Positions 6,848 to 48,890 of a stretch of DNA of 64,000 nt are shown piece by piece. Where the stretch lies: contig JANOFO010000003.1 in NCBI GenBank assembly GCA_031413715.1, positions 75,047 through 139,046 on the forward strand, written 5' to 3'. The position numbers and the translations under genes were made by a program. The DNA comes from Minisyncoccota bacterium (GTDB taxonomy: Bacteria; Patescibacteriota; Minisyncoccia; Phycocordibacterales; UBA9973). The first letter of the stretch is position 1; the number at the start of each line of letters is the position of its first letter. The notes below the pieces were generated by a model. The model was not told the DNA's origin, searched no databases, and was given only the letters and a program-made list of their open reading frames with translations.

Positions 6848-7093
6848 TTACTTTTTTATGAGTTCAATTTTCTGCATTCTTGTTAATCTTTTTAATTCTC
6901 CTTCTCTTTTTCTCATGTGGGCAAAAGTTTTGTACTTCTTGGAGTATTTTAGAGTGACTGGTCGTCTGATCTTTGTATAATGTGCACCGGATTTATAGTT
7001 GTTATGCTGATGTACTCTTTTTTCAAGGTCGTTGGTAGAGCCTACATAGAAAGTTTTATCGGCACACTCGAGAATATAGACATAAAACGGCAT
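6848..7093 (-). CDS. GIY-YIG nuclease family protein (UPF0213-like)
   Basis: FYVYILECADKTFYVGSTNDLEKRVHQHN is the GIY-YIG core. The true start is probably the internal Met at 7093, not the track start at 7162. Confidence 0.75.
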   Translation of the reverse strand: MPFYVYILECADKTFYVGSTNDLEKRVHQHNNYKSGAHYTKIRRPVTLKYSKKYKTFAHMRKREGELKRLTRMQKIELIKK

Positions 7094-7131
7094 ACATCCA
7101 TTATACCACCCATAAATGTTATACTGGAAAG

Positions 7132-7536
7132 GTGAATAAATGCCGTACTCGTATCCATACATGGCTCGAGCGCCACAACAGGGCGCGGGCGATAACCATT
7201 ATTATACTTTTAATGCTCTGTGTTGTTGAAGTGCGAGCGATCGCGATGGATTTTTACGAAACACATCAGATAAAAATATATGAACGTGAGTATCTCAAAG
7301 AACAAGCAAAACATCCTGGAAAAGTTATGACAATAGACGACATAAAATCTTGGATGACATTTTCGTATATTAACTTTGTGTTTAAGTTGCCGACAAACTA
7401 TCTATTACAGAAACTTTCTATTTTTGATTTCCGTTACCCTAACATTCATATCGAACGCTATGCCAAAATGCACAATCTAGACCAGGCAGAATTCCTTTTA
7501 CAAGTAAAACAGGCAGTGAGCGCGTACAAGTTGTAA
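7132..7536 (+). CDS. Hypothetical protein, possibly starting at the internal Met (MDFYETHQ...)
   Basis: ORF only. It overlaps the 5' end of the GIY-YIG ORF. Confidence 0.3.
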   Translation: MNKCRTRIHTWLERHNRARAITIIILLMLCVVEVRAIAMDFYETHQIKIYEREYLKEQAKHPGKVMTIDDIKSWMTFSYINFVFKLPTNYLLQKLSIFDFRYPNIHIERYAKMHNLDQAEFLLQVKQAVSAYKL

Positions 7537-10140: not shown

Positions 10141-10261
10141 GCTGCCGACCAGGGAATTTCGATCCTTACAGGATCAGTATACCTTTTCCATTCACAAGTT
10201 CATATGGAAAAGGTTTTCGAATCCCTGACGCAAGACATATTGATGTCTTGCTATCGGCAGC
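10141..10261. ncRNA. Structured element, copy 1. An outer stem gctgccga/tcggcagc encloses three hairpins. The flank duplicates 15 nt of the tRNA-Gln 3' end.
   Basis: Hairpins gatcc-ttaca-ggatc, accttttccat-N12-atggaaaaggt and caagacat-attg-atgtcttg. About 85% identical to 40766-40884, with compensatory changes in the outer stem and the last hairpin. Confidence 0.5.
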
Positions 10262-10278: not shown

Positions 10279-10284
10279 TTTTGC

Positions 10285-10353
10285 TGCCGACCAGGGATTC
10301 GAACCCCAATACCATCCTCCAGAGGGATGTGTCCTACCATTAGACGAGTCGGC
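10285..10353 (-). tRNA. tRNA-Gln (anticodon CTG)
   Basis: Minus-strand sequence GCCGACTCG...CATCC-CTCTGGA-GGATG...TTCGAAT...GGTCGGCA with a TTCGAAT T-loop. The D- and T-stems are slightly non-canonical by hand fold. Confidence 0.65.
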
Positions 10354-10441
10354 AATAACTCAAACATAGTACCATAAAAATAAAGAAAACCAACCGAATC
10401 AGGGTTTGAAAAGGAGCCATGATTGATGTACAATCAGGTCT

Positions 10442-14660: not shown

Positions 14661-15551
14661 TTATAACTTTTTTTCGGCCTCAATGAAAGGCTCTAGCTCA
14701 CCGTCCTCCAAAACTTTATCTACATCATGAACCTCTACCCCTGTCCTGTGATCTTTGATTTGCTTGTAGGGATGAAGGACATACGACCGTATTTGGCTTC
14801 CCCATTCGATCTCAGTCGTTTTTGTCGCTGACATGCCGAGTTTTTGTCTTTTTTCATCCTCTTCACGCTTTTTAAATAGCTTACCTTTGAGCATATCGAT
14901 AGCCTTCTCGCGATTCTGTTCCTGAGAACGCTCGCTAGTGACGTGTACTGCTATATTGGTCGGCAGATGAATGATGCGTACCGCCGTTTCACGCTTGTTC
15001 ACATTTTGGCCGCCCGGACCGCCGGACTTTGAGAACTCAATTTTCATATCTTCGGGTGGAATTTCTATTGCATCGTTATTTTTTTCAAATTTTGGAACCA
15101 CTTCTACGAGCGAGAATGACGTGTGACGAAGAGACTTCGCATTAAACGGCGAGATTCGAACCAGGCGATGCACGCCAGATTCATTTTTTAAAGTGCCATA
15201 GGCCAAAGATCCAATTACTTCAAGAGAAATATTACGATAGCCACCGTGATCATTTATATTTTCATGAATGAGATTCACTTCCCAACCTTTGCTTTCTATA
15301 TATTTCATATACATGCGCAAAAGCATTGCTGAAAAATCTTCGGCATCATCCCCTCCTGCGCCAGATAGGATGGAGAGAATGGCATTCCCCTTGTCATATT
15401 TCAGAGATCCAAGAAGCTCATCCTTAAGCTCATTTAGCTTCCTAATTGTCAATTGCGCTTTGACTTTATCAGTCCAGAAATCTGCCCCAGCCATCTCGTT
15501 CTCGATCCCTTCTATTTCCTTTTTTATCTCTTCTGTATCAAATTCTCGCAT
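14661..15551 (-). CDS. prfB: Peptide chain release factor 2. It is N-terminally short and has no +1 frameshift leader.
   Basis: SPF tripeptide (RISPFNAKSLRHTSF) and GGQ motif (SGGPGGQNVNKRETAVRI). An in-frame TAA lies 2 codons upstream of the ATG, and tRNA genes begin about 25 nt upstream. Confidence 0.85.
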   Translation of the reverse strand: MREFDTEEIKKEIEGIENEMAGADFWTDKVKAQLTIRKLNELKDELLGSLKYDKGNAILSILSGAGGDDAEDFSAMLLRMYMKYIESKGWEVNLIHENINDHGGYRNISLEVIGSLAYGTLKNESGVHRLVRISPFNAKSLRHTSFSLVEVVPKFEKNNDAIEIPPEDMKIEFSKSGGPGGQNVNKRETAVRIIHLPTNIAVHVTSERSQEQNREKAIDMLKGKLFKKREEDEKRQKLGMSATKTTEIEWGSQIRSYVLHPYKQIKDHRTGVEVHDVDKVLEDGELEPFIEAEKKL

Positions 15552-15577
15552 AAGTTATAGTATAACAAAATCTTTGA

Positions 15578-15643
15578 GCCGAGAGTGGGAATCGGACCCA
15601 CGTTCCTGCTTTACGAAAGCAGTGTCCCGCCTGCCTACGCTTG
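15578..15643 (-). pseudogene. tRNA-like 3' portion (anticodon arm CTGCT-TTCGTAA-AGCAG, T-arm GTGGG-TCCGATT-CCCAC, acceptor 3' strand) with no intact 5' half
   Basis: Hand fold. No acceptor 5' strand or D-arm precedes it. Its acceptor 3' strand TCTCGGC pairs 6/7 with the GCCGATA fragment at 15717-15757. Confidence 0.35.
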
Positions 15644-15716
15644 AGCCCACGAGGAGAATTGCACTCCTAACCTTCGATTTACGATACCGATGCTCTACTA
15701 ATTGAGCTACATGGGC
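15644..15716 (-). tRNA. tRNA-Thr (anticodon CGT)
   Basis: GCCCATG-TA-GCTC..GAGC-A-TCGGT-ATCGTAA-ATCGA-AGGTT-AGGAG-TGCAATT-CTCCT-CGTGGGC-T. Full cloverleaf with U33 and A37. Confidence 0.75.
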
Positions 15717-15757
15717 TTAGGTGATGGCGGGCAGGTCTGCCACTGAACTATATCGGC
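15717..15757 (-). pseudogene. tRNA 5'-half-like fragment resembling the 5' part of tRNA-Thr(GGT)
   Basis: GCCGATATAGTTCAGTGGCAGAC versus GCCGTTATAGCTCAGGCAGTAGAGC in the adjacent tRNA. No matching anticodon arm or T arm follows directly. Confidence 0.35.
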
Positions 15758-15767
15758 ATATTTCGGG

Positions 15768-15840
15768 AGCCGTTAAACAGACTTGCACTGTTGACCTCGT
15801 TCTTACCAAGAACGTGCTCTACTGCCTGAGCTATAACGGC
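15768..15840 (-). tRNA. tRNA-Thr (anticodon GGT)
   Basis: GCCGTTA-TA-GCTC-AGGCAGT-AGAGC-A-CGTTC-TTGGTAA-GAACG-AGGTC-AACAG-TGCAAGT-CTGTT-TAACGGC-T. Confidence 0.8.
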
Positions 15841-15894
15841 GTACATTTCACAGCGCTTATAGTACTATAATTACCCTCTATTTTCAATGAAAGA

Positions 15895-15922
15895 TTGCAA
15901 AATTCTCAATTTTAAGTACAAT
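15895..15922 (+). promoter_or_regulatory. Sigma-70-like promoter for the plus-strand tRNA operon. TTGCAA, a 16-nt spacer, then TACAAT, about 8 nt before tRNA-Met.
   Basis: The motif TACAATAGCA(C/A)AATA recurs in front of tRNA-Asp at 16229. Confidence 0.45.
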
Positions 15923-15930
15923 AGCACAAT

Positions 15931-16001
15931 AGCGGGGTAGAGAAATGGTATCTCGTAAGGCTCATAACCTTAAGACCCTGGTTCGATTCCAGGCCCCGCA
16001 A
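15931..16001 (+). tRNA. tRNA-Met (anticodon CAT), likely the initiator
   Basis: Acceptor AGCGGGG/CCCCGCA with an unpaired 1:72 position and the 3' end CCCCGCAAC, as in bacterial tRNA-fMet. Loop CTCATAA. Confidence 0.7.
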
Positions 16002-16053
16002 CAAGGTCGGCAGGTGACATGCCAGTGAGATATATGTCACTCCTGTCGATAAC

Positions 16054-16124
16054 GCCGGTGTAGTTCAATGGTAGAACGAAGGACTCATAAGCCTTAGAAA
16101 GTGGTCCGATTCCACTCATCGGCA
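16054..16124 (+). tRNA. tRNA-Met (CAT), elongator or the lysidine-modified Ile2 species
   Basis: GCCGGTG-TA-GTTC-AATGGTA-GAAC...CTCATAA...AGTGG-TCCGATT-CCACT-CATCGGC-A. Confidence 0.7.
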
Positions 16125-16152
16125 CAGTCGGGAATAGCCCGAAAAATATACT

Positions 16153-16198
16153 GCAGTCGTAGCTCAACTCAATTTAGAATATAGCGAGCACCCGCCTG
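16153..16198 (+). pseudogene. Partial duplicate of tRNA-Asp (the first 17 nt and a 12-nt anticodon-stem segment, interrupted)
   Basis: gcagtcgtagctcaact ... agcacccgcctg are identical to segments of the tRNA-Asp at 16245-16318. Confidence 0.5.
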
Positions 16199-16206
16199 GG
16201 CGAACG

Positions 16207-16234
16207 TTGTAATCTGATAGAGATTAGTTACAAT
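16207..16234 (+). promoter_or_regulatory. Sigma-70-like promoter for tRNA-Asp (TTGTAA, 16-nt spacer, TACAAT)
   Basis: Same -10 context as the tRNA-Met promoter at 15895-15922. Confidence 0.4.
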
Positions 16235-16244
16235 AGCAAAATAT

Positions 16245-16318
16245 GCAGTCGTAGCTCAACTGGTTAGAGCACCCGCCTGTCACGTGGGAGGTTGAGGGTT
16301 CAAGTCCCTTCGACTGCG
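16245..16318 (+). tRNA. tRNA-Asp (anticodon GTC)
   Basis: GCAGTCG-TA-GCTC-AACTGGTT-AGAGC-A-CCCGC-CTGTCAC-GTGGG-AGGTT-GAGGG-TTCAAGT-CCCTT-CGACTGC-G. Confidence 0.85.
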
Positions 16319-16323
16319 CAAGT

Positions 16324-16351
16324 AAAAAGAGAGGCGAAAGCCTCTCTTTTT
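16324..16351 (+). terminator. Rho-independent terminator after tRNA-Asp
   Basis: aaaaagagaggc-gaaa-gcctctcttttt. Confidence 0.7.
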
Positions 16352-16474
16352 CGCGCAGGAGAAGCAAGCAAACTGCTTTGCTTGCGGAGGGACTTGAAAG
16401 GCTTTTCGTTCTCCGATTATTCGGAGCGAAAAGCACCCGCGCCGGTAAGGCGAAAGACTCCCTTCGACTGCGCA
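16352..16474. ncRNA. Structured element linked to the tRNA-Asp 3' end. It ends with a direct 15-nt duplicate of the tRNA 3' end (16460-16474).
   Basis: Starts with cgcgcag (inverse of ctgcgcg), then hairpins gcaagcaaa-ctgc-tttgcttgc, the nested gcttttcg/ctccga-ttat-tcggag/cgaaaagc, and cgcc-ggtaa-ggcg, and ends with cccttcgactgcgca. Confidence 0.45.
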
Positions 16475-16547
16475 AAGGAAAACCACCCATTCTATATGGG
16501 TAGTTTTCTGTATACTGATTCGACAGACAACTGCTATAATAAAATCA

Positions 16548-17114
16548 ATGGTAAAATTAATTCTTGTCGTCGTCGCTTCCCTGCTTGCGTTAGTGGGCAA
16601 CATTCCTTACTTGCTTGATGTTATAAAAGGAAAAATAAAACCGCATCCTTACACTTGGTTTATATGGACGCTGGTTTCTTGTGTGGTCTTTTTTGGACAG
16701 GTAGCAAAAGGTGCAGGCATAGGAGCAATACCTACAGCCATTTCAGAGATGTTTACAGTAATTATATTTTTGTTTTCCATAAAATATGGTTTTAAGAACC
16801 CTCCCAAAACAGATAAGTATTTTTTAGCTCTGGCTCTGCTTGGTCTTATTCCGTGGATTTTGACCAAAGACCCGACTCTTTCAGTTATTACTGTTGTTTC
16901 TATAGATTTGATTGCATTCATACCGACTTTTCGTAAAACATATTGTCATCCTAAAAGTGAAACACCGCTCCTCTACGGCACAAATGTCTTACGGCATGCT
17001 CTTGCTCTAGGCGCTTTGGGTTCATACAACATAGCTACCATGCTTCACTCCATAGTGATGATAATAACAAATTCAATAATGGTGATTTTTATAAAAACTT
17101 GCAAGGAAAAGTGA
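16548..17114 (+). CDS. Polytopic membrane protein, hypothetical
   Basis: Six predicted TM helices. No recognisable motif. Confidence 0.5.
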   Translation: MVKLILVVVASLLALVGNIPYLLDVIKGKIKPHPYTWFIWTLVSCVVFFGQVAKGAGIGAIPTAISEMFTVIIFLFSIKYGFKNPPKTDKYFLALALLGLIPWILTKDPTLSVITVVSIDLIAFIPTFRKTYCHPKSETPLLYGTNVLRHALALGALGSYNIATMLHSIVMIITNSIMVIFIKTCKEK

Positions 17115-40765: not shown

Positions 40766-40884
40766 GCGGAGACGAAGAAAATTTCGATCCTTACAGGATC
40801 AGTATACCTTTCCCATTCATTCTTCATATGGAAAAGGTTTTCGAATCTCTCACGCAAGCAAAAAACGTTGCTTGGTCGTCTCCG
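40766..40884. ncRNA. Structured element, copy 2. It has the same core as 10141-10261 with an outer stem cggagacga/tcgtctccg.
   Basis: Conserved core AATTTCGATCCTTACAGGATCAGTATACCTTT(T/C)CCATTCA...TTCATATGGAAAAGGTTTTCGAATC(C/T)CT(G/C)ACGCAAG. The last hairpin is caagcaa-aaaacg-ttgcttg. Confidence 0.5.
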
Positions 40885-41237
40885 CTTTCGCGGGGCTCAA
40901 GCGGAGAGCGTCGAGTTGGAACTTTTTATAGGCAAGACCTGTAAGGTTATTTTAGCACTTTTTGAGAATCTTAATCGACGTATCTCGTGCGCTTCAAAAA
41001 ATGACATGGTATTGAGTATAAAAGGTGCACTCATCTGTCACTTTTTGGCTATATTTTAGTGCCATATTGTGCTATAATAATGACATGAAAATAGGTGGAA
41101 AAACACAAACCAATAGCCGAACAACCTTCTCTATAAAGGCTCTAAACAAGGATCAAGTCAAGTCTCGATCCTTCGATACCATGCGCACATCCTTTGCCAT
41201 CGAGGGCATTCGTTTTAGCGAGTCGCAATTCGCAGCC

Positions 41238-41846
41238 CTAAAGTCCGGGCGACATCTCAAGAAATAGTCTTTCCATCAGACTATACTCTTTTTGGCCAGC
41301 TTGCTGCACAGCCGCAATATATTCCTCAATATTATTTTCCAGAATTTTGAAATCCAATTCCTTGCCTGTCTTTGACATATAGACCATATTGGTGAACATT
41401 CGGATCGTTCTTCCATTGCCTTCACGGAAGGGGTGAATGAACAATAGCTCGGCATGCATTCGCGCCAAATCGGTCAACAGTACTTCTTCGTCATTCGGAA
41501 TACCTTTTAGTTGATTCAAGAACTCGTTTTCAAAATCACTCATTACTTGTGCTAGAAAACTAGCGGGAGGAAAGGTAAAGTTCCCCTTTGACATGTTCAC
41601 TGTTCTCAGTTTCCCTGCAAAACTATACAAATGACCCAAGGCACTCTTGTGTAGTTTATAAAGATAGAACAAATCAAAAATAGTATCATCAGATAGTTCG
41701 TCAATGGCCTTTTGCTGGGCATGAACAAAACCAAGAAATTCTGATTCGGCAATTTCCTCAGTCAGTGTGAAATTCGAGAGGTTTGGCAAGACCTCGCCTT
41801 CCACCTCATTGTCAGGAACAGTATATTTATCAATATTGATACTCAT
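41238..41846 (-). CDS. Fic/DOC family protein
   Basis: HPFREGNGRTIR Fic motif. Confidence 0.85.
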   Translation of the reverse strand: MSINIDKYTVPDNEVEGEVLPNLSNFTLTEEIAESEFLGFVHAQQKAIDELSDDTIFDLFYLYKLHKSALGHLYSFAGKLRTVNMSKGNFTFPPASFLAQVMSDFENEFLNQLKGIPNDEEVLLTDLARMHAELLFIHPFREGNGRTIRMFTNMVYMSKTGKELDFKILENNIEEYIAAVQQAGQKEYSLMERLFLEMSPGL

Positions 41847-47061: not shown

Positions 47062-47196
47062 GGAAGCGTGGATATGAAATATGAACTGCTTCATATTTCA
47101 TCCGTTCGGCAACAAGTCGACAAACTAATGTGCGTCGCACAGGTTTGAGGGAAGGGCCCGGGAGGGCACGAAGACACGCTGACTGAGCAAAGCGAA
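47062..47196 (+). ncRNA. Structured insert starting with a 12-nt duplicate of the following tRNA's 5' end
   Basis: ggaagcgtggat is duplicated at 47062 and 47197. In between are a 12-bp hairpin atgaaatatgaa-ctgc-ttcatatttcat, a GC-rich segment, and cacgct (the inverse of agcgtg). Confidence 0.4.
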
Positions 47197-47282
47197 GGAA
47201 GCGTGGATGAGTGGTTTAAATCAACGGTTTACTAAACCGTCGTCCCTTTAAAGGACCGTGAGTTCGAATCTCACCGCTTCCG
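47197..47282 (+). tRNA. Class II tRNA (long variable arm). The hand fold gives anticodon loop TTACTAA, so the anticodon reads ACT (Ser) with an unusual A34.
   Basis: Acceptor GGAAGCG/CGCTTCC, a 3-bp D-stem, anticodon stem ACGGT/ACCGT, T-arm GTGAG-TTCGAAT-CTCAC. Isotype uncertain. Confidence 0.6.
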
Positions 47283-48890
47283 CATAGTAATACTTTCAGG
47301 CATGAAAGAAACATTCTGCCTTGATACATAAGTACCTTTATCGGTTCGAACTTGAATCAATTCTTGTTCGGCCTTTTTTAGATTCTCGAATATGAATTTG
47401 AACGGCATATGCAAATCTATAACGAGTTTCTGGTCTTTTATGAGGAGGTTCGAACCAAGACATGAAAAAATGGCTCGCTTAGTTTGCAAGTCTCCCTTTT
47501 GGAACCAGATTTGCGCATAGCGTGCGAAATTAAATGTTCTCTCGCTTAGTTCCATCCATTGTTCCTTAGCCTTGCCGTAGGCCTCTAATTCGGTCTCTAG
47601 GGCGTGTTTCTCCTTCACTAGGCCATTCTTGAGCATCTTGTAATCCTCATTGGTTATAAGCTCATTTTGGGTATTCTCTGCGGAAGTGTATTTAAGCAAC
47701 AAGCTATTTAACTGCGTATCAATTTCAGAAAGCCGCTTCTGCTTGTTAAGCAAAACTTGATGGTATGATTGAGCCTCATTTGAGCGTACTTCATGCAAAT
47801 ACTTTATTGCCCATTGCTGAAATCTTTCAGAAATAGTTATTCCGGAAATCAAAGTGTCAATTTGAGCGGTTAAAGATTCTAGTCTGACACTTCTCTCCGC
47901 ACAGTTCTTGTCTATTCTTTTCGTGCAGTGATAAAAAATATAAGTGTGGGTGTTACCATTCTTTTGTCTTTTTGTTTTTATCTCCGCAGTTATCATTGCT
48001 CCGCAACTTCCACACTTCATTAATCCTGTGAATGCGAAGCTGTGTTTCTTAGGTTTCGGTTTTCCTTTCTTACCGAGAATCACTTGAGCGCGTTCATACT
48101 CCTCATCACTTATCATTGCTTCATGATTACCTTTTTTATTTTCTTCGTTATCAGAATATCCTGCATAAAATCTATTAGAGAATAGCCTGTATACCCCTGC
48201 CTTCCCTAAAGACTTACCTTTATATTTTTTTGTCGTGCGAGTTCTTAAATGAAATTCATTATTGGCAATATCGAGAATTTGCATCACCGTATAATTTCCG
48301 GACAAGAGCATTTGCCACATCCGCTTTACAATATCGAAACGCTCAGGGTCATTAACTATGATGTTGTCTCCTTTATCGCGGATAATAGTGTTTAAGTATC
48401 CCAGCGGCGCCCGACCAGGACGCCAGCCCATCTCTATCTTTGTTTTTAATCCTCGTTTTACATTTACACTCAAGTCTCGAATGTATTGATTTGCAATACC
48501 GAATTCCAGATATGAAAGCAAAGAATTGTCTTCTGGATAATAATCTTTCTCTGGAGTTTTAATGTGCTTTATTTCACCTCGTTGAAGCATGCCTATAATT
48601 ATTCCAGCCTCATCTGGGTTTCGAGCTAGCCTATCTAACTTCCAACATAAAATACCACTGGCTTCACCTTTCTTTATTCGACTAATCATTTCATTAAAGA
48701 CCGGACGATTAGCTGGAGTCTTTGCAGATTTCGATTCTCTTAATTTGCTTACAATCTTAAAAGAAAGTCGCGTTCCTAAATCTTCAAGTGCTTTCTCTTG
48801 GGAATCAAGACTGAGAATCTGCCGGTCATCATCTTCTGTGGACTTTCGGCAGTAAATAAAATAATTATTTTGGTTATGTTTTGTGTTCAT
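47271..48890 (-). CDS. Large serine recombinase (resolvase/invertase N-terminal domain, recombinase domain, zinc ribbon, coiled-coil)
   Basis: YCRKSTEDDDRQ...SLDSQ catalytic Ser region, and CGSCGAMI...CTKRIDKNC zinc ribbon. The 3' end overlaps the tRNA 3' end by 12 nt. Confidence 0.85.
   Translation of the reverse strand: MNTKHNQNNYFIYCRKSTEDDDRQILSLDSQEKALEDLGTRLSFKIVSKLRESKSAKTPANRPVFNEMISRIKKGEASGILCWKLDRLARNPDEAGIIIGMLQRGEIKHIKTPEKDYYPEDNSLLSYLEFGIANQYIRDLSVNVKRGLKTKIEMGWRPGRAPLGYLNTIIRDKGDNIIVNDPERFDIVKRMWQMLLSGNYTVMQILDIANNEFHLRTRTTKKYKGKSLGKAGVYRLFSNRFYAGYSDNEENKKGNHEAMISDEEYERAQVILGKKGKPKPKKHSFAFTGLMKCGSCGAMITAEIKTKRQKNGNTHTYIFYHCTKRIDKNCAERSVRLESLTAQIDTLISGITISERFQQWAIKYLHEVRSNEAQSYHQVLLNKQKRLSEIDTQLNSLLLKYTSAENTQNELITNEDYKMLKNGLVKEKHALETELEAYGKAKEQWMELSERTFNFARYAQIWFQKGDLQTKRAIFSCLGSNLLIKDQKLVIDLHMPFKFIFENLKKAEQELIQVRTDKGTYVSRQNVSFMPESITMRKR

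Follow-up and report, generated by a model that had tools for sequence, protein, structure and literature searches.

Small structured cassettes at the 3' ends of tRNA genes in Patescibacteria carry arms that match the neighboring tRNA

The DNA that follows tRNA-Asp(GTC) in the window (the whole stretch of 64,000 nt that was analyzed) is one copy of a family of cassettes of about 150 bp located at tRNA gene 3' ends in Paceibacteria-type Patescibacteria. The main new result concerns the arms of the cassette, which match the local tRNA at the loci that we examined, the 5' half being an inverted copy of the tRNA 3' part. The family matches no Rfam 15 model, was not found in the literature searched, and is apparently undescribed. 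Patescibacteria have tiny genomes that are thought to be poor in repetitive or mobile DNA.

Organization of the tRNA-Asp locus

The window comes from a bacterial chromosome and encodes CTP synthase, FtsEX, RF2, GatCA, LigA and type IV pilus genes. The sources of the homologs of its ORFs name them Patescibacteria, Ca. Nomurabacteria or Paceibacterota. The features of the tRNA-Asp locus are as follows.

16153-16198, + strand: partial copy of the 5' half of tRNA-Asp, in two blocks
16207-16234, + strand: promoter-like TTGTAA-16-TACAAT ahead of tRNA-Asp
16245-16318, + strand: tRNA-Asp(GTC) without encoded CCA (ARAGORN; Rfam, 68.8 bits)
16305-16321, + strand: X proximal, copy of the 17-nt repeat within tRNA-Asp
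16324-16351, + strand: spacer hairpin T of the bidirectional intrinsic-terminator type (A-run, GC stem, GAAA loop, T-run)
16353-16361, + strand: X'a, 5' strand of P1, GCGCAGGAG
16364-16385, + strand: P2, hairpin of 9 bp with a CTGC loop, opposite the acceptor/T-stem junction (65/66)
16387-16398, + strand: X'b, 5' strand of P3, GAGGGA + ACTTGAA
16401-16434, + strand: P4, long hairpin with a conserved base (CTTTTC/GAAAAG) and a variable tip
16439-16453, + strand: P5, short hairpin with a conserved NGUAR loop (GGTAA in this copy)
16459-16475, + strand: X distal, second copy of the 17-nt repeat
16479-16509, + strand: second terminator-like hairpin, 3' of the distal repeat (stem 16485-16501 followed by a T-run)

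The Asp copy of the cassette corresponds to segment 16322-16475. An exact 15-nt duplicate of the tRNA 3' end had been noticed here, and CCCTTCGACTGCGCA indeed occurs exactly twice in the window (16306-16320 and 16460-16474; 0.03 expected, with up to 2 mismatches allowed), being absent from tRNA-unrelated loci elsewhere in the window. The exact direct repeat is longer, however, with 17 nt (TCCCTTCGACTGCGCAA, 16305-16321 and 16459-16475). Its proximal copy comprises the last T-loop base, the 3' strands of the T-stem and of the acceptor stem, G73, C74 and AA, and its distal copy contains the 3' strands of P3 (16459-16464) and P1 (16465-16473).

The strong terminator proposed to follow tRNA-Asp was recovered as a terminator-like hairpin (AAAAAGAGAGGC-GAAA-GCCTCTCTTTTT, 16324-16351), the first 48 nt downstream of the tRNA having a minimum free energy (MFE) of -19.6 kcal/mol. 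This hairpin was not called by a simple terminator scan, probably because the T-run was counted into the stem. A GC-rich stem-loop followed by a T-run, as in intrinsic terminators, was found at 16324-16351 and 16485-16507 and not in the core. The hairpin at 16479-16509 is a candidate for the original terminator of tRNA-Asp. Furthermore, a scan of the Asp locus revealed no promoter-like site between the first terminator and the element.

X'a is complementary, in inverted orientation, to C74-G73 and the 3' strand of the acceptor stem, with 6 contiguous pairs, a 2x2 mismatch and 1 pair. The original prediction of an inverse copy, cgcgcag, proved correct in substance, although this 7-mer matches at only 6 of 7 positions and the real inverse is GCGCAG (16353-16358, reverse complement of CTGCGC). 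Moreover, the inverted copy is far longer than noted, as it includes 16387-16398 and covers tRNA positions 54-74 in two parts split by a hairpin. X'b (GAGGGA+ACTTGAA) is the reverse complement of the tRNA T-stem 3' strand and T-loop, and its ACTTGAA portion is the exact reverse complement of the T-loop TTCAAGT.

The core of about 120 nt folded at -57.6 kcal/mol (z = -4.5), and none of 200 shuffled sequences folded equally well, in agreement with the nested hairpins that had been proposed for this segment. The predicted fold consists of a closing stem (P1), hairpin P2, and a stem (P3) that closes a three-way junction with P4 and P5. The P5 stem has five positions, four of which are paired in the Asp copy.

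A family of homologous elements behind tRNA genes

Two sister elements were found in the window.

10141-10261, - strand: sister element behind tRNA-Gln(CTG) (10284-10354), with a 15-nt direct repeat, TCCCTGGTCGGCAGC
40766-40885, - strand: sister element without an intact tRNA

The arms of the element at 40766 match a tRNA-Ser-type acceptor stem (GC+GGAGACG / CGTCTCC+GC), and a decayed remnant resembling a tRNA 3' end, together with a hairpin, lies upstream at 40886-40920. Both sister elements fold like the Asp copy (z = -8.5 for Gln and -6.2 for 40766). The Asp and Gln/40766 elements had been noted to share a layout around differing, possibly diverged cores. Their common layout was confirmed, but the cores are not unrelated: judging from their alignment, the three elements are homologs, beyond the shared layout, that have in common the P2 base GCAAG/CTTGC, GAAA, the P4 base CTTTTC/GAAAAG and GTA in the P5 loop. 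P4-P5 is nearly identical between the Gln and 40766 elements (32-nt exact stretch), whereas their arms and P2 are entirely different.

A 25-base pattern drawn from the alignment of these three elements matched only these elements in the window, plus one species genome (L002), and a shortened version matched five metagenome contigs (L003-L007). The pattern had no match in viral contigs, and a second pattern scan of viral contigs produced a single chance match in a giant-virus coding region that was rejected by the model. The covariance model made for the family (R1) detected only these three copies in the window (84, 108 and 98 bits), and 10 more copies in related Paceibacteria-type contigs. 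Each of these is located directly 3' of a tRNA encoded on the same strand, as expected if, as originally suggested, tRNA-3'-associated elements form a family. A covariance model that finds this family is now available. The tRNAs concerned are Gln, Ser (four anticodons, GGA, TGA and CGA among them), Leu and Val.

L002: copy behind tRNA-Gln(TTG), found by pattern match
L003-L007: copies behind tRNA-Ser(GGA), found by pattern match
L006 (Leu_L006): copy behind tRNA-Leu(TAG), found with R1, more divergent
L015: copies behind tRNA-Ser(TGA) and tRNA-Val(TAC), found with R1, more divergent
L026 to L028: copy behind tRNA-Ser(CGA), found with R1, more divergent
L043: copy behind tRNA-Ser(GGA), found with R1, more divergent

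The same conserved core is thus found behind at least seven tRNA species, in assemblies from several independent sources, and the element always has the orientation of the tRNA. The second core type (L005, L007) follows the same arm logic with an uninterrupted inverted copy of 18 nt and without P2.

We also carried out a census of direct and inverted repeats of the last 24 nt of 36 non-redundant tRNAs within 350 nt downstream. Repeats of at least 11 nt were observed at model-positive tRNAs only, with a maximum of 9 nt everywhere else. Direct repeats extending from the T-loop to the tRNA end or just past it were found in nine loci (11-24 nt vs a background of at most 9 nt). An element was carried by 3 of 20 tRNAs in loci fetched independently of the element, and by 2 of 9 tRNAs in the window. 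About 15-25% of the sampled tRNA genes thus carry the cassette, despite the supposed scarcity of mobile DNA in Patescibacteria.

Both arms match the adjacent tRNA

The 5' half of the element (X') is the reverse complement of positions 54-74 of the adjacent tRNA, and often reaches the 3' flank of the gene. It begins with GC (or GT) opposite C74 and N73, and continues with the complement of the acceptor 3' strand, P2, the complement of the T-stem 3' strand and the reverse complement of the T-loop. P2 splits X' exactly opposite the 65/66 junction between the acceptor and T-stems. The 3' end of the element (X) is a direct copy of the tRNA from position 55 or 56 to 74-76. The 3' strands of P1 and P3 are contiguous and identical to tRNA positions 61-74, forming an acceptor-type stem that is continuous with a T-type stem.

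The element changes with the T-loop of its neighbor, the only exceptions being the two L015 copies.

T-loop TTCAAGT, element ACTTGAA: Asp, Leu_L006
T-loop TTCAAAT, element ATTTGAA: L004, L005, L006, L043
T-loop TTCGAAT, element ATTCGAA: Gln, L003, L026
T-loop TTCGAGT, element ACTCGAA: L002

In the window Gln copy and Leu_L006, in which the tRNA T-stem contains G.U pairs, the element is the perfect complement of the 3' strand and not a copy of the tRNA 5' strand. Furthermore, the inverted copy reaches into the non-tRNA 3' flank in Leu_L006 (TTTTGTGCGCGG), L003 and L004. This indicates that the template was the gene locus or its primary transcript, and not a mature tRNA ending in CCA. As X' continues into the flank, the tRNA end, the spacer and X' constitute one long palindrome centered on the terminator loop.

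Covariation supports five helices on the sense strand

All five helices (P1-P5) are supported by compensatory changes. In a hand alignment of eight members, 94% of the cells were paired and 19 of 39 pairs were changed on both sides; none of 500 shuffles reached the observed pairing, and slid controls reached about 45%. In a model-made alignment of 13 rows, 90.8% were paired and 31 of 39 pairs were changed on both sides. Both sets of figures lean toward the structure, since the alignments used for pair counts (A3 by hand, A4 by model) were fitted to it. Even so, P2, P4 and P5 do not derive from the tRNA, and several distinct compensated variants were observed for every one of them. For instance, the P5 stem occurs as GATCC/GGATC, GACTA/TAGTC, GACTC/GAGTC and GAAGC/GCTTC, and P2 of Leu_L006 and L026 has an entirely different sequence.

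On the tRNA-sense strand, G.U pairs outnumbered A.C pairs (11 vs 3), and R1 scored the sense strand of L002 far above its antisense strand (115.8 vs 23.3 bits). These observations indicate that the folded molecule is the sense strand, as RNA or single-stranded DNA; folding energies of the Asp copy do not separate the two. Among unpaired bases, GUA in the P5 loop (NGUAR) and YACY in J4/5 are conserved. A pseudoknot between the P5 loop (GUA) and J4/5 (UAC) was considered by eye and rejected, as the pairing could form in some copies but is not consistently available.

Turnover and rearrangement at orthologous loci

The family has a high turnover. In the orthologous Met-Met-Asp cluster of L012, no element follows tRNA-Asp, and a truncated P1a-P2-P3a fragment follows tRNA-Met; this absence fits gain or loss of an element and leaves the original prediction standing. 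At a conserved pair formed by an M48 peptidase gene and tRNA-Ser(GGA), the element is present in L003, L004, L005 and L043, and lacking in L036 and L039. The downstream flanks of the element-free orthologous tRNAs (L012, L036 and L039) are not conserved, and no precise empty site could be defined. Likewise, we found no filled/empty pair with both flanks conserved, a synteny search for an empty tRNA-Asp site with the same flanks returned none, gene order not being conserved, and no excised form of the cassette was seen. Logan contigs of the window organism were rejected as strain-level filled and empty alleles because they represent pieces of one population that end at the repeats.

L004 and L043 share 99% identity over a stretch that extends from the M48 gene to the 5' base of P4 and includes the tRNA, the spacer, X' and P2. 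From inside P4 onward, they could not be aligned over the 3' half of the element and one unrelated gene (263 vs 262 aa), and homology returns about 1 kb later, at the terminator that precedes a 91%-identical gene of 191 aa. The break in homology between these near-identical strains thus falls inside the cassette. L005 equals L043 with an insert of about 95 nt in P5.

Truncated, tandem or nested copies were observed in L002, L003, L005, L007 and L012, including a second, truncated unit with a homologous spacer in L002 and nested or mosaic copies in L003 and L007. One strand of P1 is decayed or truncated in about half of the copies, and arms in this condition were found in L003, L004, L005, L026, L043, Leu_L006 and Val_L015. 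L008 is a chimera whose junction lies in the shared 32-nt stretch of the core, and was most likely created during k-mer assembly. Finally, the hairpin that follows the tRNA is stronger with the element than without it (median -14.9 vs -7.2 kcal/mol, p=0.003).

A mobile cassette as the preferred reading

We tentatively favor the view that the cassette is a protein-less, selfish, non-autonomous integrative DNA that homes to tRNA 3' ends, a reading that we regard as plausible though short of probable. The observed order is terminator hairpin, X' split by P2 at the acceptor/T-stem junction, P4, P5 and X. A circular form X-T-X'-P2-P4-P5, probably single-stranded, would recombine with the tRNA gene within the segment that extends from the T-loop to the 3' end. 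Recombination inside X by such a circle would yield exactly this order, and with a unit of about 150 nt, the circle is plausible as a single strand only. The tRNA would be rebuilt from the X of the cassette, which would also supply its own terminator, and the displaced original tRNA 3' end would become the distal X, followed by the old terminator. X' would fold the single strand such that the X'/X hairpin reproduces the double-stranded target, i.e., the acceptor/T-arm helix. An enzyme encoded elsewhere would use this hairpin as its recombination site and recognize it by P2, P4 and P5, in parallel with integron attC and the folded attP of CTX phage. Later recombination between direct repeats or conserved cores could cause loss, tandem copies, mosaics and strain-level rearrangements. 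At the Asp locus, the empty site would read ...GTCCCTTCGACTGCGCAA joined directly to AGGAAAACCACCC, and the circle junction ...GGTAAGGCGAAAGAC, TCCCTTCGACTGCGCAA and GTAAAAAGAGAGG in succession, i.e., ..GGCGAAAGAC-TCCCTTCGACTGCGCAA-GTAAAAAGAG..

Several of our observations argue for such mobility: T-loop-to-end direct repeats at nine loci, one core with locally matched arms behind at least seven tRNA species, a near-identical P4-P5 with different arms and P2 in the Gln and 40766 elements, and the copying of flank bases by X'. The patchiness at orthologous tRNAs, the truncated, tandem and nested copies, and the homology break inside P4 of 99%-identical strains point in the same direction. So do a terminator that tracks the presence of the element, the second terminator after the Asp distal repeat, and the lack of a promoter-like site between the first terminator and the element. 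Compensatory changes on the sense strand also count in its favor, as a folded single strand would need them. The absence of an adjacent recombinase, transposase or reverse transcriptase counts against mobility, as does that of an excised form or of a filled/empty pair with conserved flanks, and we know of no enzyme documented to move a 150-nt unit this way. The mobile reading explains neither how both arms are re-matched to a new tRNA nor the enzyme, nor the position of P2 at the exact 65/66 junction, which looks like RNA mimicry of a tRNA minihelix. Moreover, conserved unpaired bases and long-term compensatory evolution are equally typical of functional RNA.

If mobile, the cassettes would rank with the smallest known site-specific mobile units. 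Their hairpin, matched to the target, would follow a logic that has not been described for tRNA genes, and they would also account for broken and chimeric metagenome assemblies at tRNA loci. A bolder possibility, which we consider doubtful, is that they represent a new class of protein-less homing cassettes guided by nucleic acid. As single-stranded DNA or RNA, X' would pair with one particular tRNA gene at its 3' end and act as a built-in guide that both defines the target and forms the recombination hairpin. A change of guide would then retarget the cassette, and recombination between cassettes would reshuffle the small genomes of Patescibacteria at tRNA genes.

Alternative explanations

The main rival to the mobile cassette is a gene for a non-coding RNA transcribed by read-through from the tRNA promoter, which we view as possible but rather unlikely. 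P1 and P3 would copy the acceptor/T-arm minihelix, with P2 in place of the D and anticodon arms, and RNase P, RNase Z and the CCA-adding enzyme would release and stabilize a functional core made of P4, P5 and the junction bases. Compensatory changes in all five helices of both alignments, the excess of G.U over A.C pairs, sense-strand scores far above antisense scores, and the conserved unpaired GUA and YACY are what such a gene would show, and its constant orientation with the tRNA, the terminator after the Asp copy and a P2 placed precisely where the helices join, in the manner of a tRNA minihelix, also agree with it. However, a strong intrinsic terminator and no promoter-like site lie between the tRNA and the element, and the equivalent of the T-loop is its reverse complement, which pairs into a stem and leaves no tRNA elbow. 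Models of tRNA, tmRNA and Y RNA do not match, about half of the copies have decayed or truncated arms, and 99%-identical strains have non-homologous 3' halves. Besides, the function of such an RNA would have to ignore tRNA identity, yet the arms copy local unpaired T-loop positions and flank bases. An RNA gene would account for where P2 lies and for the conserved loops, but not for the terminator in front, the copying of the flank or the frequent decay. If the elements are RNAs, they would form a new and widespread class of non-coding RNA that copies the arms of the neighboring tRNA.

A cis-acting switch of three repeats on read-through tRNA transcripts appears improbable. X' would pair with the tRNA 3' end or with the distal copy, coupling terminator read-through to tRNA folding or processing; or the distal copy would complete the tRNA, with the cassette behaving like an intervening sequence in the T-loop. 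The predicted MFE structure of 16245-16510 (-130.7 kcal/mol, z = -8.7) does use the swapped pairing, in which the tRNA X pairs with X' and the tRNA 5' acceptor strand with the distal X, and X' copies flank bases of the primary transcript. Yet this prediction is the sole basis of the switch, which has no evident benefit; decayed copies are common, the terminator would normally halt transcription before X', and we know of no bacterial machinery that splices a T-loop insert. We assign a comparably low probability to an inert scar with an unselected core, made of leftover att sites or arm fragments of large prophages or islands, or of template-switch palindromes at tRNA terminators. Integrases usually leave direct repeats of tRNA 3' ends as their footprint, and the tRNA loci studied here are clearly hot spots of rearrangement, as illustrated by the 5' partial copy of tRNA-Asp, the serine recombinase at tRNA-Ser(ACT) and the variable DNA after tRNA-Ser(GGA). 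Nevertheless, elements of similar size with a five-helix core occur behind at least seven tRNA species in several independent assembly sources, and no phage, plasmid or viral contig contains the sequence. With its compensatory changes in the helices, such a conserved core makes a scar unlikely.

Comparison with known elements and RNAs

Our searches with Rfam 15 (4227 models, including T-box, riboswitches, small ribozymes and group I/II introns) covered the window and three other members, with a permissive search of 15500-16600, and no family matched at gathering or permissive thresholds. Sub-threshold matches were chance matches of the terminator or hairpin type, and the tRNA-containing sX4 reached 40 bits against a threshold of 70. 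The permissive search produced nothing for 16353-16474, and ARAGORN and Rfam detected true tRNAs only. BLAST of 16321-16474 returned no phage match and, for plasmids, a single terminator-like chance match of 28 nt. No recombinase, transposase or reverse transcriptase was found with Pfam beside any copy among the neighbors in the window and in L002-L006. The sole recombinase in a scan of the whole window is a large serine recombinase (47271-48890) located at tRNA-Ser(ACT), 30 kb away.

In elements that integrate into tRNA genes, the identity block classically extends from the T-loop to the 3' end. Like these prophages, ICEs and islands, and like their non-autonomous derivatives (CIMEs), the cassette has a direct repeat of this tRNA segment, leaves the tRNA intact, places a terminator first after the tRNA, occurs in tandem and decayed copies, and is patchy among relatives. 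In contrast, it is about 150 bp long, gene-free and without a nearby integrase, is too small for a double-stranded circle, and carries an inverted tRNA copy and a compensated hairpin core. Casposons also integrate at tRNA gene 3' ends with a direct repeat of 14-15 bp (PMC5137440), but they are large elements with genes for Cas1 and PolB and with terminal inverted repeats of their own, and no such genes lie beside the cassette.

In integron attC sites and attP(+) of CTX phage, a hairpin formed by imperfect inverted repeats of a single strand mimics the duplex target. The element shows the corresponding structural features, i.e., a strand-specific hairpin, imperfect inverted repeats and structure kept over sequence, and likewise forms tandem units behind a fixed site. 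It differs in that no IntI or Xer-type enzyme is linked to it, its only cargo is a terminator, its stem is the end of the tRNA gene and varies with the host tRNA, and folding as DNA or as RNA is not distinguished. Like MITEs, the cassette is small, non-coding and multi-copy, with terminal inverted repeats of about 20 nt and a hairpin fold. A MITE with a target-site duplication was rejected because the inverted repeats equal the target, that is, the local tRNA end, and so differ among copies; no duplication flanks both, the left repeat being unflanked, and the site is always a tRNA 3' end.

The paired ends recall the tRNA-like domain of tmRNA, YrlA and minihelices, as an acceptor-like stem stacks on a T-stem-like helix and another hairpin replaces the D and anticodon arms. 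Unlike these, the cassette has no T-loop, since J3/4 is the T-loop reverse complement and pairs with the T-loop copy, its acceptor stem has two additional pairs over N73-C74, no Rfam model matches it, and its arms copy the adjacent tRNA. A retron or retroviral-type primer-binding site was rejected, as nothing complementary to CCA occurs, TGG never precedes X'a, X' instead copies the flank and the scans of the window and of neighboring genes revealed no reverse transcriptase. A small ribozyme was likewise rejected: a hammerhead core (CUGA..GAAA) sought by eye lacked equivalents of G8 and A9, and Rfam scans revealed no ribozyme family. The element is not the 5' UTR of the downstream gene (188 aa) either, because the extended -10 box of this gene (TGCTATAAT) lies 3' of the element in both the window and L015.

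To our knowledge, the archaeal splicing endonuclease is absent from bacteria. The transposing non-canonical tRNA introns of Thermoproteales archaea and the group I introns of Patescibacteria, whose tRNA-Asp genes are known intron hosts (PMC13011429), resemble the cassette as structured or mobile inserts of tRNA genes that contain sequence complementary to the exon. Unlike in these cases, the tRNA is whole and upstream of the cassette, and neither Intron_gpI nor a self-cleaving ribozyme was matched in Rfam.

A partial copy of tRNA-Asp upstream of the locus

A 46-nt partial duplicate of tRNA-Asp had also been reported upstream, at 16153-16198. This duplicate is real, but consists of two blocks and not of one continuous copy: 16153-16169 correspond to tRNA-Asp positions 1-17 and 16186-16198 to positions 22-34, separated by a foreign piece of 16 nt. 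Identity ends after G34, in the anticodon loop. The half-copy lies outside the cassette, yet belongs to the same rearranged locus. In the literature, the closest context is the insertion of group I introns at position 35/36 of tRNA-Asp/Asn genes in Patescibacteria (PMC13011429), which may bear on this half-copy and not on the cassette.

Type II cores and strain-level divergence behind tRNA-Ser(GGA)

Two of the loci that carry an element behind tRNA-Ser(GGA), L005 and L007, contain an alternative core, referred to as type II:

L005 1430-1560, minus strand: type II core, GGGGTCGNGAG ... TGAGTAGAC ... CTCGTGACC
L007 120-290, plus strand: type II core, GGGGTCGNGAG ... TGAGTAGAC ... CTCGTGACC

Both have the same tRNA-Ser(GGA) arms as type I elements but lack helix P2. 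In L005, the type II core sits inserted in helix P5 of a type I element, and the L043 locus is devoid of this insert and identical otherwise.

Furthermore, when L004 and L043 were compared, we observed that these 99%-identical strains have entirely different sequence over a stretch of about 1 kb (L004 7410-8400 vs L043 2860-3990). The divergent segment consists of the 3' half of the element and one unrelated gene, and its right edge corresponds to a conserved terminator.

The 191-aa membrane protein encoded downstream of this segment belongs to the same family as the product of the window ORF at 16548-17114. A gene of this family is also located directly behind a tRNA and its element in L015, a contig bearing elements behind tRNA-Ser(TGA) and tRNA-Val(TAC).

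Joints and contig ends at element copies

In L008 (Logan SRR20217205), a contig from the population of the window organism, sequence from the 40766 locus, comprising the element's 5' portion and what lies upstream of it, is fused to the 3' arm of the tRNA-Gln element and its downstream gene. The joint falls within the 32-nt core common to the two elements (L008 compared with window 10141-10261 and 40766-40935), and the fusion most likely arose as a chimera during k-mer assembly. The contig ends of L001 and L010, from the same population, coincide with repeats of these two elements.

Other features near tRNA-Asp

Three further tRNA-linked features were found upstream of tRNA-Asp:

15578-15644, minus strand: tRNA-like sequence of 67 nt; ARAGORN calls it tRNA-Thr(CGT), but its Rfam score is just 16.7 bits
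16003-16050, plus strand: stable hairpin between two tRNA-Met genes (-18.7 kcal/mol)
16153-16198, plus strand: incomplete duplicate of the 5' half of tRNA-Asp (tRNA positions 1-17 and 22-34)

The genuine tRNA-Thr(CGT) occupies 15643-15716, and the tRNA-like sequence adjoins its 3' end directly; an identical copy of the tRNA-like sequence is present in L010. The hairpin is kept in the orthologous Met-Met-Asp cluster of L012 (2024-2070, -17.4 kcal/mol).

In the half-copy, 16 foreign nt replace the D-loop and the match to tRNA-Asp ends within the anticodon loop, after G34. Directly downstream is the promoter-like site that precedes the intact gene (16207-16234). Because group I introns have been reported at 35/36 in tRNA-Asp genes of Patescibacteria (PMC13011429), the half-copy could be the relic of an interrupted tRNA-Asp gene.

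tRNA-Ser(ACT) and the serine recombinase region

47062-47196, plus strand: 12-nt copy of the tRNA-Ser(ACT) 5' end (GGAAGCGTGGAT), with intervening stretch
47197-47283, plus strand: tRNA-Ser, anticodon ACT (A34), called by ARAGORN
47271-48890, minus strand: large serine recombinase (Resolvase, Recombinase and Zn_ribbon_recom domains)

An ACT anticodon (A34) in tRNA-Ser is unusual among bacteria. This tRNA species recurs in related genomes (L026-L035) and is therefore not an error of the window assembly. The GGAAGCGTGGAT copy is found at a distance of 135 nt on the 5' side of the tRNA, separated from it by a hairpin and a GC-rich stretch. The whole feature may be an att scar, or else the equivalent, at the tRNA 5' end, of the 3' cassettes.

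The stop codon of the recombinase gene overlaps the 3' end of tRNA-Ser(ACT). Around this gene (~42-56 kb), GC content is low (34-37%) and many ORFs have no Pfam match; the region is probably an integrated mobile element.

Two other ORFs of the window were also noted:

6848-7162, minus strand: small stand-alone GIY-YIG nuclease
41238-41846, minus strand: Fic/DOC protein, ~350 nt from the 40766 element
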